Positions 3,216-57,689 of a DNA stretch of 64,000 bases are shown here, one piece after another. The stretch is from Chitinophagales bacterium (GTDB lineage Bacteria; Bacteroidota; Bacteroidia; Chitinophagales; LD1), in NCBI GenBank assembly GCA_046329535.1, contig JAXLUN010000006.1:72429-136428 (forward strand), given 5' to 3'. Numbering within the stretch: the first letter of the stretch is position 1; each line of letters opens with the position of its first letter. A model generated the notes under the pieces. The model worked only from the letters and a program-made list of their open reading frames with translations. It was not told where the DNA came from and did not search any database. The position numbers were made by a program, and so were the translations under genes.

Positions 3216-3238
3216 GGCTATTAGTTTTTTGTTCCTGC

Positions 3239-4324: not shown

Positions 4325-4442
4325 TTAAGATATTGATTTAGTGGTGAATAATTAATAGAGAGATGCATCGCTCAAACCGAACGAATGCAATGAGGGCAGC
4401 GCTTTGCCACAGAGGAGTAACAAAGTGCTAAAAAAACAGAAC

Positions 4443-4943
4443 TCAGGAGATAAAACTCTTCCAGGAATGGTAGAGAATAAAGAAAGGTATCCTCGGTCCG
4501 TTTTGTTCGGAGAAGGATGTTTGGTCAAATCTATTTCTAACAAAGGTAATTGTGAATAGCCGTTTTATGGAGATATTGGCCGCTAATGGATTCCAATCGT
4601 CATCCAGGTCGTCATCTAAATCCTCTTCTAATTCATTATCATCAGCACCTTTCTGTCCGGGTGTTGATGGCAAAGCATCAAAAGGTAAATGCAACTCAAA
4701 CTTATGGTCAGAAGTGGAAGAACTTAAAATCGGTAAGGAAATAAATCGGTAGGCTTGCTGGTCCGTTGGGTCGCAGTTAGCTGCAAATAATGATGGTTGT
4801 TGTTTGGTAAACAAAAACGCAAAAACAAGTGCCAGAGAGTATTTTAGCAATAATGTAACTACCGATTTCGGTTTCACAACAGCCGTAAAATAGTTTCTTG
4901 AGAAGAGCATTTGGATTTGCAACAATACGAAAGCAATCGGCAA
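4443..4943 (-). CDS. hypothetical protein with hydrophobic N-terminus and acidic tract (DDNELEEDLDDDLDDDW)
   Basis: ORF only, with no family recognised. An alternative start is at 4910 (MLFSRNYF). It sits 118 nt upstream of the RND adaptor gene. Confidence 0.3.
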   Translation of the reverse strand: MPIAFVLLQIQMLFSRNYFTAVVKPKSVVTLLLKYSLALVFAFLFTKQQPSLFAANCDPTDQQAYRFISLPILSSSTSDHKFELHLPFDALPSTPGQKGADDNELEEDLDDDLDDDWNPLAANISIKRLFTITFVRNRFDQTSFSEQNGPRIPFFILYHSWKSFIS

Positions 4944-6101: not shown

Positions 6102-6902
6102 ATGAGAACAAATCACGAGATTGATTATCGTATTTTCGGAGAAGAAATGCAGTGTGTTGAAATTGAACTGGATCCTCAGGAAACTGTAGTAGCCGAGTCG
6201 GGTGCATTCATGTATAAAGATCAGGCTATTCAAATGCAAACCATTTTTGGTGATGGCAGCGGGAATGGAGGTGGAGGCCTGATGGGAAAACTGCTGGGAG
6301 CTGGTAAGCGATTATTGACAGGCGAAAGTCTCTTTATGACTGCTTTCTCGCATATGGGAAACGGCAAGGCCCGTGTTGCTTTTGCATCGCCTTATCCAGG
6401 TAAAATTATTCCTATGGATTTGCAGCAAATGGGTGGTAAAGTAATTTGTCAGAAAGATGCATTTTTATGTGCAGCCAAAGGAGTGAGCGTGGGAATAGAT
6501 TTTCAAAAGCGCTTAGGCACAGGGTTGTTTGGCGGAGAAGGATTCATTATGCAGAAACTGGAAGGTGATGGCCTCGCTTTTGTTCATGCAGGGGGACATA
6601 TTATTGAAAGAGAGCTGGCTCCCGGAGAAACATTACATATTGATACAGGTTGTGTGGTAGCTTATACCAAAGACATAGACTTTGACGTACAAATGGTAGG
6701 GGGAATCAAGAATACTCTCTTTGGAGGAGAAGGCTTTTTCTTTGCCGTACTTCGAGGCCCCGGAAAGGTGTGGTTACAAACTTTACCTATTTCACGCCTA
6801 GCTTCCCGTATTTACCAATATGCTCCTCAAACCGGTGGAAGAAAAGAGGAGGGTAGTCTTTTAGGTGGTTTGGGTAATCTGTTAGACGGAGACGGGTTTT
6901 AA
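6102..6902 (+). CDS. TIGR00266/AIM24 family protein
   Basis: 266 aa. The [20 protein letters not shown]...ESGAFMY start and glycine-rich C-terminal tail are typical of the AIM24/DUF124 family. Confidence 0.8.
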
Positions 6903-6919: not shown

Positions 6920-6958
6920 AAAAAAAGGCGCAGAAATATCTTCCTGCGCCTTTTTTTT
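6920..6958. terminator. bidirectional rho-independent terminator between convergent genes
   Basis: GGCGCAG (6927-6933) pairs with CTGCGCC (6944-6950). It is flanked by an A-tract on the left and T8 on the right. Confidence 0.7.
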
Positions 6959-6969
6959 GGGTTGTAAGA

Positions 6970-7824
6970 TTATTCAATAATTATTTTTTCAGTACTTACC
7001 CGGGTTCCATTTCTTATATGCAAAAGATAGATACCCGAAGCCAACCCATTCAAATGGAAACTCCTATTAAATTTACTCTCGTTAGTTCCGCTAAACATAT
7101 TTTTTACCAACTGCCCATGTTGAGTAAATAAATTCACTTCCACAGTGTTACAATTAGTGGTTGAAAAGGACAGCGTAAGATAATTCTTAACCGGATTAGG
7201 GAATACGTTCAGGTTGCTTATTGGTTCGTTGGGGCCTAAGCTGTTAACAAGCGGATGAATAGTAACACTGCCTTTATATACTGTATCATTGGTTGATTCA
7301 TTATTACTATCGGCCGCAACAAACGAGTAATAGAAAGTAATATCACCAATCACATTATTAGGAGAGAGCCAGCTAAAAGTCCAGTTTTTAAAGGAAGATG
7401 CATCCTTATGTCCGATGTACGTAATTGGCGTTGAGAGCAATGAGGTATTGGTGGTATTGATTAGAGATAGAGAACCTGCATTCTGGTTAGAACTACTCAA
7501 CGCACTTAACTGAAATCCGAATCTTTTGCCAGTCACTTGTGGTGAAAAAGACAGAGTATAGTTTTTATTAAGGTCGTATTCAAAAGTATTAAGCAGTGAA
7601 TCTGGTGATGTTTCTCCGATTTTTATCTCAGCCAGCGCGTCACCGTTCATCAAAGCACTACCCGAATGGCATTGAGCGCATGTTTGTCCCGGTGGTATAG
7701 AAGTTGGATTTCCATTATTACCGGCTGGAGGTAAACTTACTTTGGATATAACAGGATTTAAAAAAAGTGAGCTGATAAAGATAACTAAGCTGGCTACGGA
7801 AAGCCATCTGTTCGTTCGTGACAT
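6970..7824 (-). CDS. secreted protein with N-terminal CxxCH motif and T9SS type-A C-terminal sorting domain
   Basis: 284 aa with a signal-like N-terminus and C49-A-Q-C52-H53. The beta-rich middle is possibly DOMON/reeler-like (not verified). C-terminal NVFPNPVKNYLTLSF...GIYLLHIRNG...KIIIE is a Por secretion tail. Confidence 0.8.
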   Translation of the reverse strand: MSRTNRWLSVASLVIFISSLFLNPVISKVSLPPAGNNGNPTSIPPGQTCAQCHSGSALMNGDALAEIKIGETSPDSLLNTFEYDLNKNYTLSFSPQVTGKRFGFQLSALSSSNQNAGSLSLINTTNTSLLSTPITYIGHKDASSFKNWTFSWLSPNNVIGDITFYYSFVAADSNNESTNDTVYKGSVTIHPLVNSLGPNEPISNLNVFPNPVKNYLTLSFSTTNCNTVEVNLFTQHGQLVKNMFSGTNESKFNRSFHLNGLASGIYLLHIRNGTRVSTEKIIIE

Positions 7825-7838
7825 GAAATGACTTTTAA

Positions 7839-9485
7839 TTATCGTTGCAAAATAACTTTACCAGTTGCTGTTACCTCTCCGTTGTTCTGTAATTTATAGA
7901 TATAGCAGCCATTAGGAAGGTTTTCCATTCGAACTTTCATAACACCACCACTAATGTCATAGCTACTCCCCGCTTTGTTTCCTAGTAAATCATACAACTG
8001 CAATGTAACATTTTGCAAATTAATGGTTTCCTTTAGCTCAATATAAGCTACATTATTAACCGGATTAGGATAAAATTTAAGGTAACTATCCGTATATGTA
8101 TCTTCGCTTACTCCCGATGGGAATTCTGATTTATAGTAAACAATAAACGTCACATACATCTCATCATTGGTTGTAAGTCCGAAACCAACCCAGCCGGGTC
8201 CATTGTTTCTGAAAGTTGCTTCATGAATCAGACCTTTACGCAAGTCAACCTGAAGAGGAGGTGAAAATTGCCGATATGGTGGGTTATCCCAAATGTAGAC
8301 ACCTTGGTTAAAAGTATATGATGCATCATAATGCCCATCGTATATCAAAGTATCTTTGGTTCCATTAGCGTTTCGCAGCCATACATTATACTCTTTTCCC
8401 AATTTATGAGTATGTGCTTGCATTGAAATAATGTTCCAATAGAATGCAGAATCGGGCTCAAATTGATTAATGGTAAAAGTAGTGTCATGTCCAAAATCAG
8501 GAATAATTAAATCTCCCACCTGATCACCTCCATAGCGAATTTGGGCGGTTTTTATAGGAATGACGCTAGCTTGATGGGGCTGATAGTAAATGTTCATGTA
8601 CGCTTCAGCAGCTATGATGGAATCGTTGTAGTTAATTAGGTGATAAGTAATACTAACTACCGAATTGCTGTCAAAAAGATATCCGGTTCCTGCTGGGTAA
8701 TGTAAATCAATATCGTTTGGCCACTGAGCAATAACATCGGCATGGTAAAAAAGAGCTGCTTCATCACCAATCCCGTTTACTTTGTGCATTCCACTTGTAA
8801 ATAGCGTATCGTGACCTTCATAAAATTTATAAACTGCAAAGTGATGAGACTCTTCGTTCTCCGTAACATTCATACGGGTTACATCGGCCGTAACCGGGTT
8901 TCTTACTTTGAATTTATTGCTGTATTCCACCTCTCTTCCGGAGGTTAGAAATAAAGGCCCCCAGTAGAGTTGAACTCCTTCATTGGCTGCCGGTGGAGCA
9001 AGTGTTTGAATTCGGGGCTGACCGCCTTGACCAACGTAAAAATCAATAATAGTCTGTTCGTTTACTAGGATCCCGGTATCTTTTGCTTCAAACAAAATCC
9101 ATTGGCGAATCATTTCCCGTTCGGTTTCGGTAAGTGAAGTAAGACCGTTAGGCATGGCAACTCCCTCATTGATATCTAGACTAAGATTGGCATCCAGACC
9201 ATGATTTACTTTTTTGAAGAGAAAGCTGTTTCTCGGATCGCCAGGGTCTACCAACTTAAGTCCTTTGGCTGCGGCCGCAGTATTGCTTGGTGTTACATTA
9301 TAAAGCGCATTATAAACGGCTTGTTCAGTTCCGGTTAAATCAAGGCTGCCCGAATAAACAGATGAAGTGTGACAAGCACCTGTACAATTCGCTTGCAGAA
9401 TTGTATAAACACGATTAAAAGTAGATTGTGTGAAAGCGTAAGTTGACAGAAAGGCTGTAAATATAACTGTGTAAAATATTTTCAT
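7839..9485 (-). CDS. PHM/DBH-like copper type II monooxygenase domain protein with T9SS type-A sorting domain
   Basis: I prefer Met at 9485 (MKIFYTVIFTAFLSTYAFTQ signal). The motifs ESHHFAVYKF, ITYHLINY, MQAHTHKLGK and TNDEMYVTFIVYY reproduce the CuH/CuM ligand motifs of peptidylglycine alpha-hydroxylating monooxygenase. The C-terminal FYPNPVNN...GKVILQR is a T9SS tail. Confidence 0.8.
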   Translation of the reverse strand: MKIFYTVIFTAFLSTYAFTQSTFNRVYTILQANCTGACHTSSVYSGSLDLTGTEQAVYNALYNVTPSNTAAAAKGLKLVDPGDPRNSFLFKKVNHGLDANLSLDINEGVAMPNGLTSLTETEREMIRQWILFEAKDTGILVNEQTIIDFYVGQGGQPRIQTLAPPAANEGVQLYWGPLFLTSGREVEYSNKFKVRNPVTADVTRMNVTENEESHHFAVYKFYEGHDTLFTSGMHKVNGIGDEAALFYHADVIAQWPNDIDLHYPAGTGYLFDSNSVVSITYHLINYNDSIIAAEAYMNIYYQPHQASVIPIKTAQIRYGGDQVGDLIIPDFGHDTTFTINQFEPDSAFYWNIISMQAHTHKLGKEYNVWLRNANGTKDTLIYDGHYDASYTFNQGVYIWDNPPYRQFSPPLQVDLRKGLIHEATFRNNGPGWVGFGLTTNDEMYVTFIVYYKSEFPSGVSEDTYTDSYLKFYPNPVNNVAYIELKETINLQNVTLQLYDLLGNKAGSSYDISGGVMKVRMENLPNGCYIYKLQNNGEVTATGKVILQR

Positions 9486-9530
9486 GCAATATGGTTTTAG
9501 ACTATATCTTGCGAACAAAATAATACTATT

Positions 9531-11335
9531 ATGCTAAATAATTACAAACAAAAACTTTTCACGGTTTTGCTTCTGACAATCAGCATAACGCAGTTTGCTC
9601 AAATTCCTAATGCCGGTTTTGAAAATTGGCATACGGCCGGCTTTCCAAGTTATAATGAACCAGATAATTGGGGAACTCTTAACTCTTCTACAGCCATCAT
9701 TTCTATTTTTACAGCGGAAAAGGCAAATCAGGCTAATTCACATAGTGGTACTTCTGCTATGAAGCTATCCACCCATTTTATTTCTTTCGCTAACCAAACG
9801 GCTCCTGGTATTATTGCAAGTTCCGGAGCGATTAATACAACTAATCAGAATGTTACAGGGGGCTTTCCTTTTTCATTTCGTTCCCCAGCGCTTAAGGGAT
9901 GGTATAAAGGAACTCCGGCTGTAAATGATAGTAGCCAGATAGAACTGACTATATGGAAATGGGATAACGTAAACCATGTGAGAATACAGTTGGCTGCAGA
10001 AAAGTTTACCACAAGTTCAACGGTTAATACTTATACTGAGTTTACTCTGCCAATCAATTATACTTTATCAGGTAATCCCGATAGTGCACTTATTCTTATA
10101 TCCTCCAGCAATACAGATAACCCGGTTGATGGAAGTGTATTTTATATTGATGATTTAGCTTTTGTGGACTGTAGTTCATTTACGGCTAGTACTTCATCAA
10201 CAAATTCGGTTTGTAACGCATCCAACGGTTCCGCCACGATTAATATAACAGGCGCAACTTCTTATAATTGGTCGAATAGCGGAACTAGTAGCACAATTGC
10301 AGGATTGGCGGCAGGAACATACACTGTAACCGCTACTGATGTCAATGGCTGTTCCGCTACTGCATCAGTGAACGTGGGAATAACCAATACAACAATCACA
10401 TCCACAGTTAGTACTACTACCTCTGCCTGCGGATCCGGTACGGGTACGGCAACTGTTACACCAACAAACGGAACATCTGTTTATTCATATTTGTGGAGTA
10501 ATGGAGGGAATGCAGCTAGCATTTCCAATGTTATTGCAGGAAGTTATCAGGTGACTATATCAGATGCTAATGGCTGTTCAAGAACAGCAGTAGCACAGTT
10601 ACTACACCTAACGGACCATCGGCAACTCAATTGACAAGTGATATTAGTTGTAATGGAAAAAAGAAAAGTAAAATCTGGGTATGAGTGTTCTGTTACTCTT
10701 ATCGGAGGAATTTGGCGCTATTACTTATCAGTGGAGTCCATCCCGTGCAACAAAGGATATTAGCGGGCTTTCTGCCGGTAATTATGCGTTGACAATTAGC
10801 GATGCTAATAATTGTTCCTTTAGTACAACCTGATTACCGAACCTGATTTGCTGACAGTTTCTTTATCAACTATTGATGCGACAACATCTACCGCATCGGA
10901 TGGTTCAGTAGTAGTTTAGCTATCAGGTGGGACAAGCGGGTATTCTTATTTATGGTCAAATTCCTCTTCGTCTTCTGAAATAAATGGAGTTGCGGCAGGT
11001 AACTATTGCCTAACCGTAACAGATAATAATCTTTGCACAGTCGGTGCATGTGCTGTGGTTAGTGCACCTTTAGTGCTCTGCAAACCTCCAACGATGTATT
11101 AAATGTTTATCCTAACCCGGCTGCCAATCAATTGCTAATTGACGCAATAAATTCGGGTGCTGGATGTGAGTTTTCTCTTTTCTCGATGGAAGGCAGACTA
11201 ATGAGTAACAAGAGTATTAGCGGAAAAAGAGTTCTTCTGGATATAAGTCAGTTACCCATAGGACTTTACACATATCAGTTTAGTAATCGTACTGTTGGTG
11301 CTGTTTATTATGGTAAGCTTGAAATCTTACGGTAA
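9531..11335 (+). pseudogene. SprB-repeat T9SS cargo gene, disrupted by stops and frameshifts between ~10590 and ~11131
   Basis: Intact for 367 aa (signal peptide, then SprB-type repeats such as CNASNGSATINITGATSYNWSN...TVTATDVNGCSA). Further SprB repeats are readable in shifting frames ([31 protein letters not shown]; LSGGTSGYSYLWSN...NYCLTVTDNNLC). An intact T9SS tail follows at 11132-11335 (VYPNPAANQLLI...GKLEILR). Confidence 0.75.
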
Positions 11336-39280: not shown

Positions 39281-42236
39281 TTAGAAGTTAAACGAAACTA
39301 CAGCGAGTAGGTTCTGAAATTTTTCTGGCTTAACACCGCGTCTTCTCTTTCTGATACTGTCTTTCTTTCCCCACTACTGCATTTTAGTGAAGATACTCTT
39401 GGCAGCAATCAAATCACTGATAGTAAAGCGCACCACTCCTTTGCCCTTCCAGAACTTTTAGCTCAATTGAAAATCGAGCAAAGGTCTCGGTATTCATACC
39501 AGGCAGGGTTACCCACTTTACACTTGAGGCTGCATATAAGCGCTGACCTACCTGATTATACAACAAGCGGCTAACCCCGGTACTATAGTGGGATGCACAT
39601 ATAATTTAACCGGAGTTGATAAGTGTAAGGGCTTTGTCCACTGCATAGGCCGAAGTTGTTCATCGCTGCTGTTATTTTTCACATTACGTAAATCAACCCG
39701 GCTGTAGATATAGAGCCAGATTAGCCACAAACACCAGGTCTTCCAGTTTCTTCAAGCAAAAATCCGTCTTTCTCACTTCCAATTCGGCACCTACTAAAAA
39801 TGCTTTGTCGGCATTACTGTATACAAAAGTTTGTGTACTGCCGCTGCTGATAAAAGTTAACTCAATGGTATTGGTGAAGTTTTTATAAAACACGCACAGC
39901 ATTCACACTCTGGCCTTTCCCCAAAAAACATTCATAACGCAAATCGGCAATGTGAATGAAGGTTTACCAACAGGTTTGGAACGCAATCAGATTGACATCG
40001 CGAAGGAAGTCATAGTATAGAAAGTTAGAACTTTCGCGAAACTCCGGACGGCTCATGCTCTGGCTGTATGAAGCACGCAGGTTCATGGTTTCGTTCAGCT
40101 TGTAAATTAAATTGATAGAAGGCAGCAGCGGGAAAACCATCCACCTGACTGACCTGCGGCTGAATCTGATTTATAGGCTCAACTGCAAATAACTTTTTGC
40201 GAATAGGTAGTATCTACCACTTTAGTTACAATCAGAGGAGGCTCAGGGTCCTGAGGGATGATATCAAAGTCGATAGCACCGGGAGCGGTCAGGTTTTGTT
40301 TAAATGATTCAAAACGGAAACCCCACACGGCTTTAAACTTTTCACTGATGTTGTTTTCCATCATCACATAAGCAGCGTGGGTGGTAGACTTTGCTGAGTA
40401 AATGTCCGTGGGAAAAACAAACGGATTCATCGTTAACTTGTTATTGTCAAAGTTGGCCGTGTTAATGATGTGGTCAATGTTCTGATCCATACTCATAGAG
40501 TCGCCAAAACCGCCCGGGTAATCAATGAATAGATTGCGTGCCTCAAATGAGCGGTTGCGTTGCTGAAAAGAGTAGCCAACAGTTACTGCCTGCTTTTGCC
40601 CCTTTATTTTAAACGGAAAGCTCAGGTCAGTAGCAGCATTGTAAACCCGCTCTCGCAACTGGCTGTAGAAATAAGCACTCTGTTTCGGGTCAGAGCCTCC
40701 GTTAGAGAACTGGAAAAGCAAAGGGTCGGTACTTTCGTTCGGACCAAAGTTGGTAGAAGAGGAGTAGGGTTTTTCGTAAGAGTAACGGGTTGTGTGTGGC
40801 TGGTCGCGGTTAATCATCACCAGGCCGCCATTCCATTTCCAGCGAATTTCAGAAGGTCCGAAAACATGCTCCCCGGCCAGGTTGCTGCTGAAAACCTTGG
40901 CCGTGGTGTATTCCAGACTGGTGCGGTGCTGTTCGGTCGCATTGCCATAACTGATACCATCGCGCAACGTGATGTTGTTTTCCATGTTATTGGTAAAAAT
41001 GTTCTTCCAGGATATTTTGTGATTGTTCTTAATTACCAAGCTCAGGTTGCCTAACAGGGCCGAGGCAACCGAATTGCTGTATCGCTCATCCTGATAGTCA
41101 TTATCCAGTTCCGCTTCTGTACCCGACCCTTGGTATTTGGTGCGGCTTCCCTCGGTGTAGCGCAGATTGTTAGAATAAGTAAGTGCAAACACTCCACCCA
41201 CCTGAATCTCTTTCTTGCGAACCGCAAAACCGGCACTCATTTGTAAACTTTGTCCGGGATAGGCCATCTTCTTTTCGCGTACCTTCCAGCTGGTGTTGGT
41301 AATTTGCTTGCCTAAAGCACGTAACGAATCGGTAGAACCGGACAGCTTCAAATCATTGAGAGCGATAATACCGGGAAAATTGCCAGGCAGGGGACGAACC
41401 TTGTTATCGAAACCCAGAAAATCGGTTTTGCTGCCTTCGTATGTTTTATAGGGTTTAAAGGCGCTGCCTTCATTGAAACTGATACCGTACGATACGTTGA
41501 AGAAACTCTTCTCGGGAATATCGCGGGTGTTCAACTGAATTAATCCACCGGCCCATTCGCTGGGTAAATTGGGCTGACCGGTTTTCATAATGATGATGTT
41601 ATCCAGAATGTTGGATGGGAAAACATCAAAAGCAAATGCCTTACGGTCAGGCTCGGTACTGGGTAGCAGGGTGTTGTTCAGCATGGCCATGTTGTACCGG
41701 TCGGCCAAACCACGGATAATGGCAAACTTACCATCCTGAATGGTAGAGCCGCTCACTCTGCGTATCACATCGCTCGAGCTTTTATCTGGCGAACGTTTCA
41801 TTTCCTCCGATGAGATACCGCTTTGAATCACCGTGCTGTTTTTCTGCATCATCACAATCGCACTTTCATTATCTTTCTTTACTACTGTGGCAGTAATTAC
41901 TGCTTCTTTCAAGATAACGGCATCTTCTATCAGGGTCATATAGAGGTTGGTTACATCGTTTGCTTTTACATCCACTTCATCCTGTTTCTCCTGATAGCCG
42001 ATATATTTTACCCGCACTTTATGTTTCCCTGCCGGAACTTTCGGTATCGTGAAGTTGCCATCCAGATCGGTTTGTGTGGCTAGTTCGTTGTTTTCGTCCA
42101 CCACTACCGTAGAGCCCATCAGCGTTTCTCCACTTTTACCATCTACTACCTTTCCGGCCAGTACTCCGGTTTGTGCCCGGCTCAGCGAAACGGATAAAAA
42201 AGAAACGAAAAGAAGCGTGTATAATCTGTGTGTCAT
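39281..42236 (-). pseudogene. TonB-dependent receptor (CarboxypepD_reg type), C-terminal ~300 codons (39281-40178) fragmented
   Basis: The 685-aa N-terminal ORF 40179..42236 is intact. Barrel fragments appear in other frames (39548..39730, 39693..39902). The terminal ...FNF* is readable at 39281. Confidence 0.8.
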
Positions 42237-42401
42237 AGCTTTTGTATTTGCTGCTGCAAAGGTGCAGTGCCAACAATAAGCTATGTTGATGTTTATGTTA
42301 CGCTTGCGTTAAGAGGGTGGAAACGGAACGTTATATCCACAGGGTATCCTCATTTTTCGCGGTTGAGGCTCTTGTTAACATGCAATTAGTTCAATAGCGG
42401 T

Positions 42402-42842
42402 TCAGGCGGGTATTATCAGTTTACTCTGCCCGTAGTCTATAATCATTTTTTTGCTCAGCAGAATATCGGAACCCAGTATGCCGTGAATCTTCGGCTTTTT
42501 GAGCGAGGCGTACGTGGAGTTTACATGGTTGAGGTCGATAGCTGAAGCCATGAATTGCTTCATGAGCAAGGCGCCAATTTTCAGGTCTTTGATTTTGCCG
42601 TAGTGCGACTCGGTAGTAGAGCTGTGTAAACCGATGGTAGATTGTTTAATGGTTTTTAAACTACGCTTACCAAAATGCTTTTCGAAAAAAGCTTTGTCTA
42701 CCACACTGTGTGAGGCACCAGTATCTAACAGAAAGCGGCATCGCTTACCGTTTACCGATACATTTAAAAACAGATGATACCCGATAGCATCCAGCGCTTC
42801 AATAATCAGTTTTACTTCAATAGTTTTTTTTGTCCTGGCCAT
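42402..42842 (-). CDS. retropepsin-like (clan AA) aspartic protease, single domain
   Basis: 146 aa with an FLLDTGASHSVVD active-site motif and ILGSDIL flap/dimer region. Confidence 0.75.
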   Translation of the reverse strand: MARTKKTIEVKLIIEALDAIGYHLFLNVSVNGKRCRFLLDTGASHSVVDKAFFEKHFGKRSLKTIKQSTIGLHSSTTESHYGKIKDLKIGALLMKQFMASAIDLNHVNSTYASLKKPKIHGILGSDILLSKKMIIDYGQSKLIIPA

Positions 42843-42844
42843 GG

Positions 42845-42886
42845 GGCTAAAATAAAAATAGTCTTCTGCCGGCCGGCAGAAGACTA
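42845..42886 (-). terminator. rho-independent terminator of mdh
   Basis: 28-nt perfect palindrome TAGTCTTCTGCCGGCCGGCAGAAGACTA (42859-42886), followed on the minus strand by TTTTTATTTT. Confidence 0.8.
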
Positions 42887-42908
42887 TCGGTTTCAGAGAA
42901 TTTAATTT

Positions 42909-43844
42909 TTACAGCGTTAAGGTATCCAGCACACTGTTCATGCTTCTTACCGCATCGGCACTCTTGTTAAACTCCGCCTGCTCTTCGGCATTCAGCTTAT
43001 AGTCAATAATTTTCTCCCATCCGTTTTTGCCAATTACTACCGGCACACCCAGACAGATATCTTTCTGACCGTATTCGCCTTCGAGCGATACGCAGCAGGT
43101 AAATACTTTCTTCTCATCGCGCACAATACTTTCTACCAGTGCAGCACCTGCAGCACCCGGTGCATACCAAGCCGAGGTTCCAATCAGTTTGGTCAGAGTG
43201 GCTCCGCCTATCATGGTATCGGCTGCTACTTTCTTCAGTGTTTCAGCATCCAGCAGGTTACTAACCGGGTTACCGTTCAGCGTAGCCAAGCGCGTTAATG
43301 GAATCATGGTGGTATCGCCATGGCCGCCTACTACTACCGCGTGTAAATCGCTGGCCGAGCAGCCTAAAGCCTGAGTTAGATAATATTTAAAGCGAGAGCT
43401 ATCGAGAATACCGCCCATACCAATGATGCGGTTCTTTGGCAAACCGGTGCTCTTCAGCGCTAGGTATGTCATGGTATCCATCGGGTTGCTGATAACCACA
43501 ATGATTGCATTAGGTGAATGTTTCAGAATGTTATCGGTTACGCCTTTTACAATGCCTGCGTTGGTGCCAATCAGCTCCTCGCGGGTCATACCGGGTTTGC
43601 GGGGCAGGCCCGAAGTAATGACCACTACCTCACTGCCGGCAGTTTTAGAATAATCGTTGGTAGAACCCACAATCTTGGTATCGAAACCCAGCAGGGTGGC
43701 GGTTTGGTTCATGTCCATGGCTTTACCTTCGGCAAAACCTTCTTTAATATCGAGCAAAACCAGTTCGTGACAAAGTTCTCTGCGGGCAATGTTGTCGGCA
43801 ACGGTGGCACCTACGGCTCCGGCACCTACTACGGTAATTTTCAT
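42909..43844 (-). CDS. mdh: malate dehydrogenase
   Basis: I prefer Met at 43844 (MKITVVGAGAVGATVA...). It is an LDH-like MDH and contains IIGMGGILDSSRF. Confidence 0.95.
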   Translation of the reverse strand: MKITVVGAGAVGATVADNIARRELCHELVLLDIKEGFAEGKAMDMNQTATLLGFDTKIVGSTNDYSKTAGSEVVVITSGLPRKPGMTREELIGTNAGIVKGVTDNILKHSPNAIIVVISNPMDTMTYLALKSTGLPKNRIIGMGGILDSSRFKYYLTQALGCSASDLHAVVVGGHGDTTMIPLTRLATLNGNPVSNLLDAETLKKVAADTMIGGATLTKLIGTSAWYAPGAAGAALVESIVRDEKKVFTCCVSLEGEYGQKDICLGVPVVIGKNGWEKIIDYKLNAEEQAEFNKSADAVRSMNSVLDTLTL

Positions 43845-43879
43845 ATCAGTTGTTTTTAGTTGTTTTTTAAAAAGCGGTG

Positions 43880-43910
43880 CAAACATAGGCGAATTGACAA
43901 ATTGTGCAAA
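43880..43910 (-). promoter_or_regulatory. Bacteroidota-type promoter for mdh (TTTG-N19-TATGTTTG)
   Basis: On the minus strand, TTTG is at 43910-43907 and TATGTTTG at 43887-43880, with a 19-nt spacer. ATG lies 36 nt downstream of the -7 box. Confidence 0.45.
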
Positions 43911-43967
43911 TGAGTTTTGTTGGCTGATTAGGGAAGTGAAGAAGGCGGGAAATTGTAAGCTGCCGGT

Positions 43968-43994
43968 ATGGTGCAATCAAAAAAGCCCCTGCGT
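43968..43994 (-). terminator. rho-independent terminator (minus strand)
   Basis: 8-bp stem at 43975-43982 / 43987-43994. Its mismatch is a G-U wobble only on the minus-strand RNA. It is followed by UUUUUUG. Confidence 0.55.
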
Positions 43995-44145
43995 TAGCAA
44001 GGGCCTATGTAGCAGAGTGAATAAGCCTGAAAGATAACCATTCATGGCGCAGGATAGGGTAGGGGCGGGTGCGGCTTTAGCCACCCGGGTTATCCGGGCT
44101 AAAGCCCGTCCATCATATCTCCTCAGCTCTGCGCAGGCAGTAAAT

Positions 44146-44175
44146 TGCTATAATTACAATGCCCGCTTAACTAAG
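44146..44175 (-). terminator. strong hairpin just after the PorP-OmpA stop codon (no U-tract)
   Basis: 14-bp perfect stem, ACAATGCCCGCTTA / TAAGCGGGCATTGT. Confidence 0.4.
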
Positions 44176-44216
44176 CGGGCATTGTAACCTAAACCGGTAG
44201 CTAAACCTGCTGCGGC

Positions 44217-46127
44217 TTACTTAATAATTTCTACTTCTATTCTGAAGTTTTTGGCGCGGCCTTCTTCGGTGGTGTTATCGGCTATGGGTTTACGCGGGCC
44301 CATGCCTACGTACGTAAACTGGGCAAACGGTATACCTTTGGTTTCTAAATATTCTGCTACTCTTCTGGCGCGTTTGTATGAACGGAAACCGCTTTGCTCC
44401 TCTATATCAAACCCATCGCCATGACCAACAATGCGCACGCGGGTGTCTTTGTGCAGCTTCAGGTAATTAACCAGTTTATCGAGCTCGGCATAGGAACTTT
44501 CGTGCAGTTTGCTGCCATCTCTTTCTACGCTGATGTTGCCGAGCGAAAACCGCTCGCCCACTTGTGGAGCTGCTTTGGCTTCAGTTTGGGCAGGTAAGGC
44601 AGGTGCTTCAGCAATAATCTCGTATCCCTGTGCTGTTTTCTTTGTTTCTTCTTTAGCCACCGGAGCAGGTGTTTCGGTTTTGGTAACAGCAGTAGCTGCT
44701 TCTTGTTTTGCTTTGGCCTGCTGTTCGGCTTCGTATGCTACTTTAGCTGCCTGTGCTTTCTCTTTGGCCTGTTGCTCAGCTACGGCTGCGGCTTTAGCGG
44801 CTTCTGCTTTCTCTTTAGCCTCCTGTTCGGCTGCGGCTGCTTTTGCTGTTTCTTGTTTTGCTTTGGCCTGCTGTTCGGCCAATGCTGTTGCGGCAGCTTT
44901 CTCTTTGGCCTGTTGTTCAGCTGCTGCTTTAGCGGCATCTTCTCTGGCCTTTGCCTGTTTTTCAGCTTCGGTTTGCTGCTTTTGCTGCTCTTCTAATTTC
45001 TTGTTCAATGCATCCAGTTTTTCTACCTGCTCTTTTTTGCGGGCAGCTGTTTCAGATTGTTGCTGTACATCGGCTAAAGCCTGTTGCAGGGCATCTACTT
45101 TTACAGCTAAACTATCCACTGCTTTTCTGGTGGCGGCTAAAGAATCGGCTGTTGCGCGGCTCTGCAAACTATCGTAACTGCTGGTTTGCGGTGCTGCAGC
45201 GGTCTCTTTTACTTTATCAGCTTTCTTCATCCATTTATCAAAGTTAAGTCCTACGGTTAACTCATGGCTGCTGTAAATGCTGGGTGTAAACGGCACCCCT
45301 TGCAGCAATGGCACCTGATAGGTATAAGCCACGGTAAATATTTTAGAGATTCTGACCCCGGCTGTAACGGGCAAACCACCCAGCAAATCGTAGCCCACGC
45401 CTAAAAAGATAAAGCGCTTGTAATCGGCCATTAGCTGCAGGTTCAGGTTTACCTGCTTCAACTGGTCTATCTTCATGACAAAACCGGGCTCCAGATGAAA
45501 CTTATCTTTGGCAAGGCTTATTTCGTAGCTGCCGTTAATAAGGTAGTTGCGCTTAAAGTTGGTTATTCTAATCTGATTGCCGTAAGCGCGGGTGTTGGCA
45601 TCGAGCAGGTTGGGTATGGCAAAACCTATGGTTAGTTTTTTCCATTGGTAAGCCAGGCCTATGTTCATGTCAAAATATACCGTTCTAGGTTTGGTTGCGC
45701 TGGGGTCGTTGTTTATCATTTCCAGGTCGGCCGATGATATATTGGTGCCGTGCTGCAACACTCCACCGGCAACACCGATGGAAAGAAGATGGTTTTGCGC
45801 CAGTTTAATTTTTTGCGCATAATACAATTTGGCATCTATTATTTGTGTAATGCCCCCTGTATAGCTCATTACTTCTATACCGGTGCCTATGCGGTCGTTC
45901 CACAAGCTAATTTCGCCAATGCCGCCCGCCATGCGCGGGTGCGAAAGTGCGCCTGACCACTGGTCGCGGAAAAAGCCATACACATTGGTACTGCCGTTGT
46001 AAGCGGTAAGTGCGGGGTTAGCTGTTAGCCGTGCAAAGTAAACGCGGCTTTGCAAGTTTAACTGCTGCGCTTGCGCTGCCAGCATTATTACTGCGGTTGT
46101 TAGCAGGAGAAATATCTTTTTCATCAT
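44217..46127 (-). CDS. PorP/SprF-family T9SS membrane protein fused via a long Ala/Glu/Lys/Gln-rich spacer to an OmpA-family peptidoglycan-binding domain
   Basis: aa 1-297 match PorP/SprF (signal, ...FRDQWSG..., beta-barrel pattern). aa ~300-520 are low-complexity AEQQAKEKA-type repeats. aa ~525-636 contain VRIVGHGD...SYKRARRVAEYLETKGIP...GMGPRKPIADNTTEEGRAKNFRIEVEII (OmpA_C). Confidence 0.85.
   Translation of the reverse strand: MMKKIFLLLTTAVIMLAAQAQQLNLQSRVYFARLTANPALTAYNGSTNVYGFFRDQWSGALSHPRMAGGIGEISLWNDRIGTGIEVMSYTGGITQIIDAKLYYAQKIKLAQNHLLSIGVAGGVLQHGTNISSADLEMINNDPSATKPRTVYFDMNIGLAYQWKKLTIGFAIPNLLDANTRAYGNQIRITNFKRNYLINGSYEISLAKDKFHLEPGFVMKIDQLKQVNLNLQLMADYKRFIFLGVGYDLLGGLPVTAGVRISKIFTVAYTYQVPLLQGVPFTPSIYSSHELTVGLNFDKWMKKADKVKETAAAPQTSSYDSLQSRATADSLAATRKAVDSLAVKVDALQQALADVQQQSETAARKKEQVEKLDALNKKLEEQQKQQTEAEKQAKAREDAAKAAAEQQAKEKAAATALAEQQAKAKQETAKAAAAEQEAKEKAEAAKAAAVAEQQAKEKAQAAKVAYEAEQQAKAKQEAATAVTKTETPAPVAKEETKKTAQGYEIIAEAPALPAQTEAKAAPQVGERFSLGNISVERDGSKLHESSYAELDKLVNYLKLHKDTRVRIVGHGDGFDIEEQSGFRSYKRARRVAEYLETKGIPFAQFTYVGMGPRKPIADNTTEEGRAKNFRIEVEIIK
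44640..45000 (-). repeat. imperfect tandem coding repeats (about 150-bp period) encoding AEQQAK(E/A)K(A/Q)-type low complexity
   Basis: CTTGTTTTGCTTTGGCCTGCTGTTCGGC recurs at ~44701 and ~44851, and CTTTCTCTTTGGCCTGTTG recurs three times. Confidence 0.7.
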
Positions 46128-46172
46128 CTTTATTTTTTCGGTTGATTACTATTCGTCTTTCTTTTACAAAAA

Positions 46173-49100
46173 CTATCGGATAAGGGTAACTACCCGCTCG
46201 TACTGGTTTCTTTTCTCCCCGTTAAAGCGTTCTTCTTTACCATTTATATAAAGGGTTACCGCATATTCACCGGCAGGGCAATTTTCTCCACCATCAGTAT
46301 TACCATCCCAGTTAAGCGGACCGGTGCCTGTTTTTACTAACTGGTTGGTGCTGGTAGACCTTATCTTCCACAAGGCATTGGTCATATCGTGATAGGTGCC
46401 GGTGGCGGTTAATACATCGTTGGTACCATCGCCATTTGGCGAAAGCGAAGGGTTGATGGTGAGGTAAACATCTACTTTGTATTCGGTATTGGCTGTGCAC
46501 CCTAATTGTGAAACAGATAGTTTAACTATGTCGGCTACTGTATTATCCCCAAATCTGCAAGAAGTTTCTTCGGAGGTAGGGCTGCCAAGCACCACATATT
46601 CAGCAGACCATAGGTAACTAACCGGTGCTGTGCCACCGTAACCTGATACCTCAGCAGTTAAGGTAATAGACTCACTATACTGAAGTTGGGCGTGGCTCTC
46701 ATGACAACTTGAGGCAGAAGTGGCTCTTACAGTAAATTCGGGGTAATCGCATTTGGTATATTCATAAGCGCCCATTTCGGGGTTACCCCTTCGGGTGCTA
46801 TCGAGTATATCCTTTTCCGGTGCATTATCTTTTATACCTGTGTTTATACACGGGCTTTCTGCATTTAAGCGCAAGCCGTCATCGTCTGTGCGGTGTTTGT
46901 TATCGGGGCCATCAATATCGCTGGCATCTTCAAACTGCGGGTCTTGCGCAAAAATATTTCCGCTGGAGCCGGAGCCTAATAAACTGATAAGCCCCATCTG
47001 CCAACTAGTATATTTGTTGCTCGGCAACTGCAAGAGGTTGTTCTTAAAGGTGTTATTGGGACGAACATCACCAGTTCCCGGACTAAACTCAGTATAGTAA
47101 TCAGCAGAATAAGCATTAGCATCGTTTCCAGCCTTATTATTCCAGAATATATTGTTGTTGATGGTGTTGTCGCCACTCGTCTTAATTCCACCGCCATAAG
47201 TCTGAGCCGTATTTCCGGTGATGGTATTGTTGCTGATGGTGCCGACTCCGGAAATTCCACCGCCATAGTTAGCCGTATTTCCGGTGATGGTATTGTTGCT
47301 GATGGTGCCGACTCCGGAAATTCCACCGCCCTTTCCACCGGCTGTATTCCCACTTATGGTATTATTGATGATGGTGACTGTGCCATTGTCGGTATAGATT
47401 CCACCGCCATTAGCACTTGCAGTATTCCCATTGATGGTATTGTTGCTGATAGTGTTGGTGCCTCCACTGGTATAGATTCCACCGCCATTAGGAGCAAAAA
47501 AGTTGCTCGCAGTGTTGTTGCTGAAGGTATTATTGCTGATGGTGTTGGTGCCGCTCTCGGTATAAATTCCACCACCCTTCTTATTAACTGTATTCGCGCT
47601 GATAGTATTATTGCTGATGATGTTGGTGCCGGAATAGGTATAAATTCCACCGCCATATCCCTTATTAACACTTTGCCCGTTAATCGTTAAAGAAGCAGTT
47701 ACACCTCCATTACCATTACCACCGCTAATGGTAAACCCATCGAGGGTGTCTATATCGGCAGCATTAGCATTGGCTATGAGCACTACATGGTAGGTGTTGT
47801 CGGTATTGTTGTTGTCGGTTCCAATATCGCCACTCAGTATGGTAGGGTTGGCGGCAATATCGCGGGTGCCGGTTGTAGCATCGTAACCGCCATACACCGC
47901 CAGGTTACCGCGCAGGTGGAAGGTTTTATCGCGGTCAGTAGTGTTTGCCGTTATCTCTTCTCCGTTTTCAAATGGTTTGAAAGCAGGTTTGTAGGTGCCT
48001 TTGGCTACTAAAATTTGGGTAACGTTAGGGCACTCGTGGGCTTTTTTAAGGGCATCGCTTAACTCCTTAATAGCTGTAGCCCAGCTATCGCCATTGCCGG
48101 AGGTGGTTACGGTTTGGTCTACATATAAAACAGGCGCGTTGCATGGGTCGGTAAATTCATAAGCGCCTATATCGGTAGCGCCCACGCGAGCCTTGCCCAG
48201 TTTATCGGTAGCAGGTATGCCGCTACCGGTAATGCCTGCGTTAATAGCCGGGCTGCCGGCCTGCAGTTGTAAGCCCGCATCTACGTTAGGGTCGTTGGCG
48301 TTTACAAACTTAGGGTCAACAGCAAATAAATTACCTGTGGCACCGCTGCCTAAATCGTTTTCGTTTGCTCCGGTATATTCTGTTTGCTGCAACTGAAGCA
48401 GGTTGTTTGTAAAGGTGTTGGTGGTATTATTACCTCTGCCGTAATCTGCCTCGGCTATGGAACTTGAACCGGCCGCATTGTTATTCCAAAGTATATTATT
48501 GCTGATGGTGTTCTTACCCCCATTGGTATAGATTCCACCGCCATCAGTACCAGCCGTATTACGGCTGAGGGTATTATTGCTGAGGGTATTGTTGCCATAA
48601 TCGGTACAAATTCCACCGCCATGTTCAGCCTCATTACGGCTGAGGGTATTATTGCTGAGGGTATTGCTGCCATTAGTGGTTTCTATTCCACCGCCATCAA
48701 TAACAGCCAAATTCCCGCTAACTGTATTGTTGCTGATGGTACTGTTGCTATTAAAGCATTTGATTCCACCGCCATCAATACCAGCCAAATTCCCACTAAC
48801 TGTATTGTTGCTGATGGTGCTGTTGCTATTAAAGCATTTGATTCCACCGCCATCACCTCCATTAGCTGAATTCCCGCTGATGATATTGTTGCTTATGGTG
48901 TTGTCACCTATAAAGGTATAGATTCCACCGCCATCACTACCAGATGTATTGCCGGTGATGTTATTGTTGCTGATGGTGGTAATACCACTACAGGTATAGA
49001 TTCCACCGCCAGAGTGTTGGTCTACTGAAAAAGAACTTTGGTTAAAAACACTTACTTCAATTTTACCTCCACCATCCGCTTTTCCATCGGTAATGGTAAA

Positions 49101-52100
49101 ACCATCAATGGTCACCTGCTCGCTAAAGGTGCCATTGGTTATCAGCACTACGTGATAGGCATTACCATTATTTCCAATATCGCCACTCAGTGTGGTCAGG
49201 TTGGCGGCAATATCGCGTGTGCCGCCACCGGTAGGGTGGCCTCCATACACTGCCAAATTGGTGAGGATGTGGAAGGTGGCATCGCGCGGGTCGGGGGTGG
49301 TTATGGTATTGCCATTGCTCAGGTAAGGTTTATGCAAGGGTTTGTAAGTGCCTGCGGCTACATTGATGGTAGTAATATTAGGGCAGGCTGCTGCTTTTTG
49401 CAGGGCCTCGCTCAGCTCTTTATAGGCAGTAGCCCAGGTTTCTCCATTGCCCGAGGTGGTTACGCTTTGGTCTACATACAAGGTATTGCCCGCAGGGCAT
49501 GTACTTACCGGTTGGGTAATAAAAATGGTCTCAATGATAGAGCAACCACCGGCATCGGTAATAGTAACCGTGTAGCTGCCGGCAGTAAGGTCGGTGCGGT
49601 TTTGGGTAGTAGGCCCATCGCCCCATGCGTAGGTATAAGGGGCGGTGCCACCTTCAACCGTAAGGGTTATACTTCCATCGTTGCCACCGGCTGTAGTTAC
49701 GTTGGCAGGCACCACACTAGTGGTTACAACGCCCACCACAACTTGTTTTTCGGTTGTGCAGCCATTCGCATCTTTAACCATTACATTATAGGTGCCTGCA
49801 GTTAAGCCGCTAAAGGTATAAGGGTTGTTCTGGGCTGTAAAAGTTGCTCCATCGCTGGCATATTGATAGGGTGAAGTTCCACCTGTGGCATTTACTGTTA
49901 TGCTGCCTGTAGTGGCTCCGCATGCATTTACCTGCGTAGTGGTGAAATCAAGTAAAGGGGGCTCGTTAATAGTAACTGATGCTGTTGCTTCGCAATTACC
50001 ATCACTAACGGTTACGATATAGAAGCCCGAAGAAACAAGCTTATTATTACCCAAAAAAGTTTTGTTAAGACTACTACCATCATATCCGTTATTCCATACA
50101 TAGGTGTAATTTCCGGTTCCTCCGGTAGCTGTTACGGTGGCGTTTCCGTTAACTCCGCCATTGCAGGAGACATGCGTAACGGAGGTAATAGCAGCGGTTA
50201 AGTTGCAGTTGAAGGTATTTACCGGGTAGCTGCCGGTAGCCGAGCAGCCTTGTGCATCTGTAACGGTTACGTTGTAAACACCGGCAGTGAGGTTGGCAAT
50301 ATCCTGCGTGGTAGCGATGCCGGGGCTCCAGATGTAATTGTAAGCAGGTGTGCCATCGTTTACCGTAAGGTCAATAGCCCCATTGCTGCCGCCATTGGTG
50401 CTTACCAGGGTGGTGCTTGCCGTAACCGATAAAGTATTGGCAAACTGGGTAACAGTAGCGTTGGCCGTAGCGGTGCAGCCGCTGGCATCGGTAACGGTGA
50501 GGTTATAGGTGCCGGGGGTGTTTACCACCAGGGTGTTGGTATTGCTTAACGCGGTATTAAACTTCAATACCGTGGTTTTATCTCCATTTCCACCATCTTT
50601 ATAAGCCACATAAAGGGTACCGGTATTATCTATGGATAAGCTTTGATAATCGGAATAACCTGCCGAGAAGCCGGCATTACCTACATTGACCCAAGCGGTA
50701 CCATTAAACTTCATTACGGTGGTTTTAGCGCCATTTGCGGCATCTTTGTATACCACATAAGGGGTGCCTGTATTATCTATGGCCAGTTTTTGGTTGAAGG
50801 CTTGCCCTTGCGAAAAGCCCGCATTGCCAACATTCACCCAGGCAGTGCCGTCAAACTTTCTGACCGTGGTTTTGTTACTACTTGCCCAATCTTTATAAGC
50901 CACATAAGGGGTACCGGTATTATCTATGGCTAAGCTTTGGTTGTCGGCCCCCCCCAGCGAGACATCCACATTGCCTACATTGATCCAGGCAGTGCCGTCA
51001 AACTTCAGTACCGTAGTTTTGGACTGTAAACCATTCAAGTAAGTTACATAGGGTGTGCCGTTATAAATAGCGAGGCTTTGGTAGTCGGAATAAGGTGATG
51101 AGAAAGCCGCATTGCCCACATTGACCCAAGCCGTGCCATTAAACTTCATTACCGTGGTTTTGTAGTTAGCTGTCATATCCTGATAAGCCACGTAAGGGGT
51201 GCCGGTATTATCTATAGCTAAGCTTTGGTAGGATGCAGCACCTGCCGAGAAACCTGCATTGCCTACAGTGACCCAGGCGGTACCGTTAAATTTCATCACC
51301 GTGGTTTTGCTGTTGTTTCCATAATCTCTATACGCCACATAAGGGATGTTATTGTAAATTGTCAGGCTTTGGTAACTTGCTTCATCTGCCGAGAAACCCG
51401 CATTGCCCACAGTTACCCAGGCAGTGCCGTCAAACTTCATCACGGTGGTTTTGTCGTTATTGGCTGCATCCTTGTAAGCCACATAAGGGGTGCCGTTATT
51501 ATCTATGGCCAGGCTTTGGTGGGAAGCCTGATCTGCCGAGAAGCCCGGTGTGCCTACATTTACCCAGCCGGTTGGTATGGCCGGGTTTTGCCAGTTGTAG
51601 GTATACCCTGCCACCTGTGCCGTGCTAAGGGTGGTAGAGCTGCCCGCGCAAATGCCGGTGTTGCCTGTAATGGCAGCGCTTAGTGTGTTACTGGTTATTG
51701 TTTCAGATGCAGATGCCGTGCAGCCGTTACTGCTTGTAGCCGTAACAGTATAGGTGCCTGCTGCCGTGGCCGAGATAGTTGCCGTGGTTGCATTGGTGCT
51801 CCATACGTAGGTGCTTCCGCCATTGGCGGTTAGGTCAATACTGGTAGTGGTGCAGGTTAATGCAGTGGTGGTAGGGTTGTTGGTAATGGTAGGTGCAGGT
51901 ATAGTTGGCTGTGCATTGATGGTTACAGGGGCAGATGCCGGTGAGATGCAACCGTTTTGGTCCTGAACGGTGAAGGTGTAAGTGCCTGCCGCCAGCCCGC
52001 TGAAAGTGGCTATTGCTGTTGAACCAGTTAAGGTGGCACCGCCAGTGGCGGTTACTGTCCAGGCAGCAGCCGGTAAACCGCTCAACTCCACACTTCCCGT

Positions 52101-57161: not shown

Positions 57162-57689
57162 TAATTTTTTTGTTCTAAAAAACTAAAAGAAGATTTTTGA
57201 AACGGACCAGTCAAACGAGTTATACATAAGTATATATTCTCATCCTGCCATTTAGCGGCTGAATTTGTTATCCCCGAATGTTAATGCCAAAAATCGTTTT
57301 AGTCCTTGTGTCCTGTTTGCTAAAGTAAAAATCAATTTAACACTTGCAATAAATCTTGATCAAAAAAGTGGATTACTCTCAAATTAAAATGTGTTTTAGC
57401 TGTGTAGTTGTTATTGGAGCCACCGGCAAGGTTTGTCTAGCTAAATGGAAGTGGTTGAGCAAAAAGTGTTTACTAAAACATGCCAAGCATCAAGCAGAGA
57501 AACACAGCAATTTCATTTTAGAAATCTTCATTGAGGCAGAGTTTGAAAATGATAAAAGAGAAGGGCAGTAAATCATGTAATGAAGATAAATATTGAATGT
57601 TTTTTGACTGGTCGAATATCACTAAAAAGTTATTCGCTGGAAAAAAATGAAACCGTTTTCTCCCTCACTCCAGGTTGTTTAAGTTCAAA

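Follow-up and report, generated by a model that had tools for sequence, protein, structure and literature searches.

The pair of genes described here raises the question of whether a bacterium can export a two-copper monooxygenase of the class of peptidylglycine alpha-hydroxylating monooxygenase (PHM) and dopamine beta-hydroxylase (DBH), and by what route such an enzyme would receive its electrons. The genes lie in a 64,000-nucleotide stretch of contig JAXLUN010000006.1 of a Chitinophagales bacterium (positions 72,429 to 136,428; hereafter the window) as two open reading frames (ORFs), arranged head-to-tail on the minus strand. Protein 1 is encoded by an ORF of 559 aa (7839..9518) and protein 2 by an ORF of 284 aa (6970..7824), with a spacer of 14 nt between them (7825..7838). 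An earlier note, made from the DNA alone, had read protein 1 as a copper monooxygenase with all six copper ligands and protein 2 as its possible haem or redox partner, both exported by a type IX secretion system (T9SS). Both ORFs were found arranged as described there, and every motif it named lies at the residues it gave; the numbering of protein 1 follows the 559-aa ORF. PHM, DBH and tyramine beta-monooxygenase (TBM), the non-coupled two-copper enzymes, are known as ascorbate-dependent enzymes of the animal neuroendocrine system, and both the electron route to the first copper (CuH) and the crossing from CuH to the second (CuM) are still debated. According to the present analysis, protein 1 is probably a secreted c-type cytochrome joined to a PHM/DBH-type two-copper monooxygenase and a T9SS tail, which would hydroxylate an extracellular substrate other than peptidyl-glycine.

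The AlphaFold2 model of protein 1, which was built on 48 homologues, reached a pLDDT of 87.2 and a pTM of 0.76. When this model was compared with the PDB by Foldseek, the best 31 matches were 29 PHM chains and two of human DBH (E = 2.6e-12 to 2.6e-8, TM score up to 0.67 on the target). The PHM chains were aligned over 301–337 columns, that is, over the whole PHM core, indicating that both catalytic domains are present: an N-terminal beta-sandwich (CuH domain, approximately residues 170–318, 8565..9011 on the minus strand) and a C-terminal one (CuM domain, approximately residues 319–467, 8118..8564, minus strand). The predicted fold agrees with the earlier reading across both domains. The CuM domain was also recognised by Pfam PF03712 (Cu2_monoox_C) at residues 362–464 (25.8 bits against a gathering score of 23), a family matched by 42 of the 48 aligned homologues, whereas the N-terminal catalytic domain is backed by the predicted fold and not by sequence. 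A single-sequence search of the PDB with protein 1 found nothing, and a profile of the whole protein matched mainly T9SS tails there.

Conservation of the predicted ligands points in the same direction. The 48 homologues (34–74% identity) share only 28 invariant columns, among which are the nine predicted ligands C45, C49, H50, H225, H226, H293, H369, H371 and M454. Protein 1 contains 15 His residues, and the six that are invariant are all predicted ligands (the haem His and five copper His); among its 11 Met residues M454 alone is invariant. Judged from the alignment, this pattern exceeds chance. In HMMER local alignments made with a profile of the catalytic region, esHHf fell on tvHHM of PHM, qaHtHklGk on rvHTHHLGK and tedEM on SSDEM, which places the motifs on PHM H107/H108, H242/H244 and M314, respectively (chain positions counted with an offset of +44). 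H225-H226 (8841..8846) would accordingly be CuH ligands, while H369-T-H371 (8406..8414) and M454 of the D-E-M motif (8157..8159) are predicted to bind CuM. H293 (8640..8642, all on the minus strand), which is likewise invariant, is the candidate for the third CuH ligand and would correspond to PHM H172. Taken together with the model, these data support the assignment of protein 1 as a PHM/DBH-fold enzyme with all six predicted copper ligands, in agreement with the earlier note.

The residues with which PHM recognises its substrate have a different fate. PHM R240 is replaced by Q367 (Q in 33 of 48 homologues, never R) and N316 by V456 (V, L or I in the family), and since these two peptide-binding residues are not kept, protein 1 is not a peptidylglycine hydroxylase (EC 1.14.17.3). 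The position of PHM Y318, occupied by F458 in protein 1, stays aromatic (Y in 36 and F in 11 of 48). The substrate is therefore something other than peptidyl-glycine, and is probably not a peptide.

Ahead of the copper core lies a domain (residues 32–165, 9024..9425, minus strand) that is all-helical in the model and follows the pattern C-x3-C-H, G-x-L-x-L, D-P-G-x-P-x-x-S-F-L, M-P and E-x-E-M-I-R-Q-W-I-L-F-G-A. The earlier note had found this region reminiscent of the planctomycete-type cytochrome domain PSCyt1, and when the domain was scanned alone in 37 members, c-type cytochrome families did match it weakly. The second haem domain of TIGR03806 (SO2930/HNE_0200) matched 31 of the 37 (best E 1.6e-8), PSCyt1 and Cytochrome_CBB3 11 each, and CTI and cytochrome c6 six each; the LIC11213 lipoprotein family also matched 14, and three other families matched a single member. 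The candidate covalent haem-binding motif, C45-T-G-A-C49-H50 (CX3CH, 9369..9386, minus strand), is invariant in all 48 homologues. Among the family ORFs its Cys and His residues are always kept and its spacing varies: 18 have CX2CH, 60 CX3CH and about 20 CX4CH, all of which are known variants of the haem-c motif. M122 of the M122-P123 pair (9153..9155, minus strand), located about 72 residues downstream of CX3CH, is the candidate distal haem ligand, and Met is found at this position in 44 of 48 homologues. Where the Met is absent, some members instead show a His one or two positions further on (alignment columns ~95–103, residues 118–124 of protein 1), which would fit an alternative sixth ligand. 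From these motifs we regard haem binding by the N-terminal domain as likely.

The domain was fused to the copper core in 98 of the 99 family ORFs found at 79 loci, the single exception being fragmentary. Because the enzyme family carries it nearly everywhere, the electron-entry module is most likely built into the enzyme. DOMON, the module that would be expected from the animal enzymes, matched neither protein 1 nor its 48 homologues, and the N-terminal module is all-alpha in the model; a DOMON identity was rejected for both proteins of the pair, protein 2 having a reeler fold (see below).

Both proteins appear, with signal peptides read from the sequence, to be T9SS type-A cargo, as had been proposed. 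The C-terminal sorting domains of protein 1 (7842..8081; PF18962, E 6.5e-11, 42.8 bits; also matched by sorting domains in the PDB) and protein 2 (6973..7218; E 3.3e-14, 53.4 bits), both on the minus strand, exceed the PF18962 cut-off of 27 bits, and TIGR04183 passes for both as well. The putative signal peptide of protein 1 comprises residues 12–31 (MKIFYTVIFTAFLSTYAFTQ, 9426..9485, minus strand), where the N-termini of the homologues align. The mechanically called ORF reaches up to a TTG at 9518, but the true start is most likely the ATG at 9485 (M12), since the database copy (P0001) has 548 aa and the homologues begin at the equivalent of M12. The protein 1 gene would then extend from 7839 to 9485 on the minus strand and encode, in this order, the signal peptide, the cytochrome-c-like domain, the PHM/DBH-type core and the T9SS tail in 548 aa.

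The enzyme family is sizeable and secreted. In an exhaustive profile search with a limit of E <= 1e-30, representatives of 385 clusters (50% identity) were recovered, and the best 150 of the approximately 385 representatives, fragments aside, align from profile positions 1–20, so that they include the cytochrome domain. The 79 loci all belong to uncultured Bacteroidota (metagenome-assembled genomes, MAGs, of Chitinophagales, Flavobacteriales, Saprospiraceae and Sphingobacteriales), and the database names are "T9SS type A sorting domain-containing protein" or "hypothetical" only. In longer variants (640–1222 aa) the tail is preceded by inserted stalk domains of the Ig, PKD, SprB or SdrD-B type, which fits a display at the surface. 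Tandem arrays of two to four paralogues were observed in 16 loci (e.g. L062 2961–10566, L076 6986–12574 and the L031–L049 group), and several MAGs hold three or four separate loci; these arrangements suggest diversified specificities. In 12 loci (e.g. L031 6358–6762, minus strand) a gene at a distance of 140–1260 bp from a family member encodes a small lipoprotein of the copper-chaperone type, with GMTCxxGC and an HMA domain, which provides an independent copper context for the family. Just upstream of one family member, in locus L073, lies the gene for a 519-aa T9SS protein (2917–4476, plus strand), with CxxCH at the N-terminus and with HxH and N-D-E-M kept in the C-terminal domain (hhalign probability 98%); it belongs to a more distant second subfamily. 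The tRNA synthetases, MTHFR, LepA and riboflavin synthase found beside other loci were rejected as partners and attributed to housekeeping synteny.

The protein 2 gene (6970..7824, minus strand) encodes a signal peptide, a CxxCH segment, a beta-rich domain and its own T9SS tail, all as noted earlier. The domain was identified by NCBIfam NF041895 (choice-of-anchor V; 64.1 bits, cut-off 42). PF02014 (Reeler) is recorded on homologues of protein 2 but not on the window protein itself, and the best single-domain Foldseek match to the protein 2 model was the reeler domain of F-spondin (TM score 0.65, root-mean-square deviation 4.1 Å, 147 columns). C49, C52 and H53 of the candidate haem-c motif C49-A-Q-C52-H53 (7666..7680, minus strand) are invariant in 13 of 13 relatives (25–57% identity), and some relatives have Cx4CH. 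The motif, probably a haem-c site, comes about 20 residues after the point where the signal peptide is predicted to be cleaved, in a stretch with pLDDT below 50 in the cofactor-free model. LecA, which came up in a single-sequence PDB search with protein 2, was rejected as a chance match.

The earlier note had suggested that the two proteins form one extracellular oxidation system, and had proposed co-occurrence of the genes as a check. The 79 loci were searched for protein 2 by tblastn, phmmer and six rounds of jackhmmer, with neighbours clustered after trimming of the T9SS tails. A homologue was found behind the enzyme in five loci (L001–L005; enzyme identity 53–74%), that is, in 5 of the 69 loci with downstream room, and also on two metagenome contigs (L090 and L091). 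With the window, the pair is thus present on eight contigs, with gaps of 12–62 nt and 33–55% identity among the protein 2 copies. The six loci compared have at least four flanking contexts (the window; L001/L002; L003/L004; L005), while L090 and L091 stood outside this comparison and their flanks were read from gene tables. The pair is strictly kept as far as the available loci go, but only within one sub-clade, and the rest of the family of about 385 clusters was without protein 2. Six more distant choice-of-anchor V relatives are encoded after AhpC/Redoxin genes (three), before DUF4271-HEM4 (two) or elsewhere, and none of them adjoins the copper enzyme (L084–L087, and L080 and L088 among the loci). 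HEM4, seen beside two of these proteins, is uroporphyrinogen-III synthase.

A third gene accompanies the pair. It is transcribed divergently from the enzyme (9531..11335, plus strand) and belongs to a family with a carbohydrate-binding-like PCMD domain, SprB repeats and a T9SS tail. The N-terminal pattern is I-P-N-x-G-F-E-x-W ... W-G-T-L-N ... G-W-Y-K-Y ... V-D-D-L, followed by the SprB repeats, and PCMD (PF13201) matches 18 of 21 members of the neighbour family (best E 3.7e-7), the profile of which also matches PDB entry 3s30. A PCMD-type gene adjoins the enzyme in 22 of 79 loci (19 of the 64 with room on both sides) and is more widely conserved beside it than protein 2 is, and the trio of enzyme, protein 2 and divergent PCMD protein occurs on all eight pair contigs. 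The start codons of the enzyme and the PCMD gene are only 45 bp apart in the window (9485..9531), so that the promoters must overlap each other or sit inside the coding regions.

The mechanism that we infer starts from the observed fold, ligand conservation, domain architecture, sorting tails and gene order, and draws on what is established about the chemistry of PHM and DBH, the maturation of cytochrome c in the periplasm and the export of folded proteins by the T9SS. Sec would carry protein 1 into the periplasm, where haem may be attached on C45 and C49, with H50 and M122 as axial ligands, and where copper would be loaded into the CuH site (H225, H226, H293) and the CuM site (H369, H371, M454). 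The T9SS would then take the protein to the cell surface or into the medium. There the haem could accept single electrons from an outside reductant and hand them to CuH, in the role that ascorbate plays for PHM and DBH; CuH would reduce CuM, and CuM would bind O2 and hydroxylate a C-H bond of the extracellular substrate. Protein 2, probably co-transcribed with the enzyme in the sub-clade, might act as an accessory, either as an electron relay or as a binding protein.

Several results weigh against this mechanism. All of the cytochrome matches fell under the curated cut-offs (TIGR03806 24.3 against 313 bits; PSCyt1 16.9 against 22 bits), and a profile of the domain found no solved relative among the PDB sequences. 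PF01082 matched neither protein 1 at E <= 1 nor the 48 members at E <= 0.1; among the Pfam checks suggested in the earlier note, PF03712 was therefore the one that passed, while PF01082, PSCyt1 and DOMON stayed under their thresholds on protein 1. PDB searches with sequence profiles reached PHM and DBH at E of about 1 only, and H293 was equated with PHM H172 by its invariance and its spacing (67 residues against 64) and not by residue alignment. We know of no electron source that would serve a haem protein located beyond the outer membrane. In addition, the PCMD-type gene of the window is broken after approximately residue 355 (the open frame stops at 10634, with a frameshift at ~10595). Further stops occur in its SprB repeats, its T9SS tail lies in another frame (11069–11332), and this copy, shortened by frameshifts where the orthologues have 668–820 aa, gave no PCMD match at E <= 1; it could be a decaying pseudogene or the product of a repeat-assembly error.

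The sub-cut-off cytochrome matches and the lack of a PDB relative by sequence would also be expected if the N-terminal domain were free of haem, its Cys pair forming a disulphide or a metal site, and if the copper were reduced directly by a small molecule, as ascorbate does with eukaryotic PHM. To our knowledge, PSCyt1-type domains have not been characterised biochemically, and the model is less confident around the CX3CH motif (pLDDT 70–80) than elsewhere. This explanation appears quite unlikely, since it leaves aside the invariant C, C and H with a spacing of 2–4 residues, which is the pattern of known haem-c variants, the Met-Pro about 72 residues downstream with a His following where the Met is missing, the all-alpha predicted fold, and the matches of most members to c-type cytochrome families (the LIC11213 lipoprotein family also matching 14 of 37). 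The loss of the substrate residues R240 and N316 of PHM, the binding-type nature of the PCMD, SprB and reeler neighbours, and the tandem arrays of two to four paralogues, which suggest diversified targets, could in turn be explained by a copper core that, instead of hydroxylating a defined small substrate, works on surface polymers as an oxidase or a source of reactive oxygen, or serves as a non-catalytic copper-binding or adhesion module. We consider this improbable: every ligand of the PHM-type set is strictly kept, the Met of CuM and the D-E-M and H-T-H contexts among them, and PHM-like activation of O2 is therefore favoured over simple binding.

The role of protein 2 can be seen in a different light if it is taken as the dedicated haem donor of the monooxygenase in an obligate two-component system, analogous to DOMON/cytochrome b561. 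The 14-nt gap without a terminator, the invariant CxxCH, the T9SS tails on both proteins and the persistence of the pair on eight contigs, in spite of a protein 2 identity of 33–55% and across at least four contexts in the six loci compared, all speak for such a system. It is nevertheless unlikely, as homologues were found in so few of the loci with room, even by jackhmmer, the enzymes have their own cytochrome domain nearly everywhere, and the six distant relatives of protein 2 never adjoin the enzyme. The proposal of a two-protein system is thus not supported for the family in general, where the cytochrome is fused to the enzyme, although the pair itself is kept in one sub-clade. With a cytochrome domain already present in the enzyme, it is more plausible to regard protein 2 as an accessory specific to this clade than to make it the family's electron donor.

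As to the substrate, the arrays of paralogues, the stalk domains and the proteins encoded nearby (PCMD and reeler) suggest that the targets are polymeric or bound to surfaces, which is only a lead. Going further, the trio could constitute a T9SS-displayed oxidative system that hydroxylates a polymeric or surface-bound substrate with electrons delivered by c-type haems. It would then be a functional counterpart, with a different copper fold, of the fungal pair of lytic polysaccharide monooxygenase (LPMO) and cellobiose dehydrogenase (CDH), and no earlier member of the PHM/DBH class would be self-sufficient and independent of ascorbate; we regard this extension as doubtful.

With respect to the remaining features of the locus, no terminator was found in the 14-nt spacer by inspection of the ORF positions and a terminator scan, and we infer that the two genes are co-transcribed. 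A GC-rich hairpin (GGCGCAG, 10-nt loop, CTGCGCC; 6920..6958), flanked by an A-run and a T-run, was read from the sequence downstream of protein 2 and is likely to be a bidirectional terminator, marking the end of the two-gene unit as well as that of the AIM24-family gene that converges on it (6102..6902). The consensus terminator scan overlooked it because its 10-nt loop exceeds 8 nt, and the sigma-70 promoter scan is uninformative for Bacteroidota. The genes flanking the trio in the window (UDG, DMT_6, AIM24, asparagine synthase and others) were considered as partners and rejected as unrelated. Elsewhere in the window, G+C was 0.46–0.50 at ~40000..54000 compared with ~0.39–0.41 in the other parts, and two very large ORFs (3662 aa and 1251 aa; 46173..61445, minus strand), which clustered with SprB-repeat/T9SS proteins, are probably giant surface adhesins.

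The open full-text literature, to the exclusion of subscription journals, yielded no study of bacterial PHM/DBH-like enzymes or of haem fusions to this fold and nothing on choice-of-anchor V, nor are bacteria among the sources of these enzymes named in a 2025 review of PHM and DBM. This is in line with the earlier statement that bacterial members are essentially uncharacterised, and a PHM/DBH-type core fused to a cytochrome-c-like domain is a design absent from the literature searched. If the proposed function is correct, the enzyme would offer, in one natural chain, a system where the entry of electrons could be triggered and tracked by the haem spectrum. It would also bring two-copper chemistry into the extracellular metabolism of bacteria, enlarge the known T9SS cargo by redox enzymes that bind haem covalently, and provide a first clue to what the PSCyt1-like and the bacterial reeler (choice-of-anchor V) domains do.

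Among known systems, PHM (PDB 1PHM, 1SDW, 3MLJ) is the closest in the core. It shares with protein 1 the two-domain beta-sandwich (Foldseek E ~1e-12, TM score 0.63–0.67 on the target), the order and rough spacing of HH...H and HxH...M, and the HTHxLGK and DEM motifs. The identity is just 14–18%, however, PF01082 finds no match in protein 1, and Q367 and V456 stand in place of R240 and N316. PHM holds five disulphides, whereas the mature body of protein 1 has two Cys residues only; protein 1 is moreover bacterial and extracellular, with a fused cytochrome-c-like domain and a T9SS tail. DBH, tyramine beta-monooxygenase and MOXD1 (PDB 4ZEL) have the same catalytic fold and ligand set (human DBH appears at Foldseek ranks 7 and 11), and they also carry an additional N-terminal module ahead of the catalytic core. 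In DBH and MOXD1 this module is a DOMON beta-sandwich, in contrast to the all-alpha cytochrome-c-like domain of protein 1, which also has no dimerisation domain.

The N-terminal domain itself shares with PSCyt1 (PF07635) and TIGR03806 the motifs CXnCH, G-L-x-L, P-G-x-P-x-x-S-x-L, M-P and L-x-x-x-E-x-x-x-I-R-x-W-I-x-x-G-A. It differs from them in that CX3CH is one residue longer, that there is a single haem motif and that the matches stay under the cut-offs, and from PSCyt1 in being joined to a copper enzyme and not to PSCyt2/PSD1-type domains. In the way it may work, protein 1 resembles the LPMO and the cytochrome of cellobiose dehydrogenase, where a secreted copper oxygenase is fed by a haem domain and carbohydrate-binding-type modules are associated. 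The folds are unrelated; LPMOs use a single copper in a histidine brace, and the CDH haem is of b-type in a beta-sandwich. Protein 2 shares its fold and domain score with the reeler domains (PF02014; F-spondin, PDB 2ZOT and 3COO) and NF041895, to which it adds the invariant N-terminal CxxCH and the T9SS tail. In animals, ferric-chelate reductase 1 combines reeler, DOMON and cytochrome b561.

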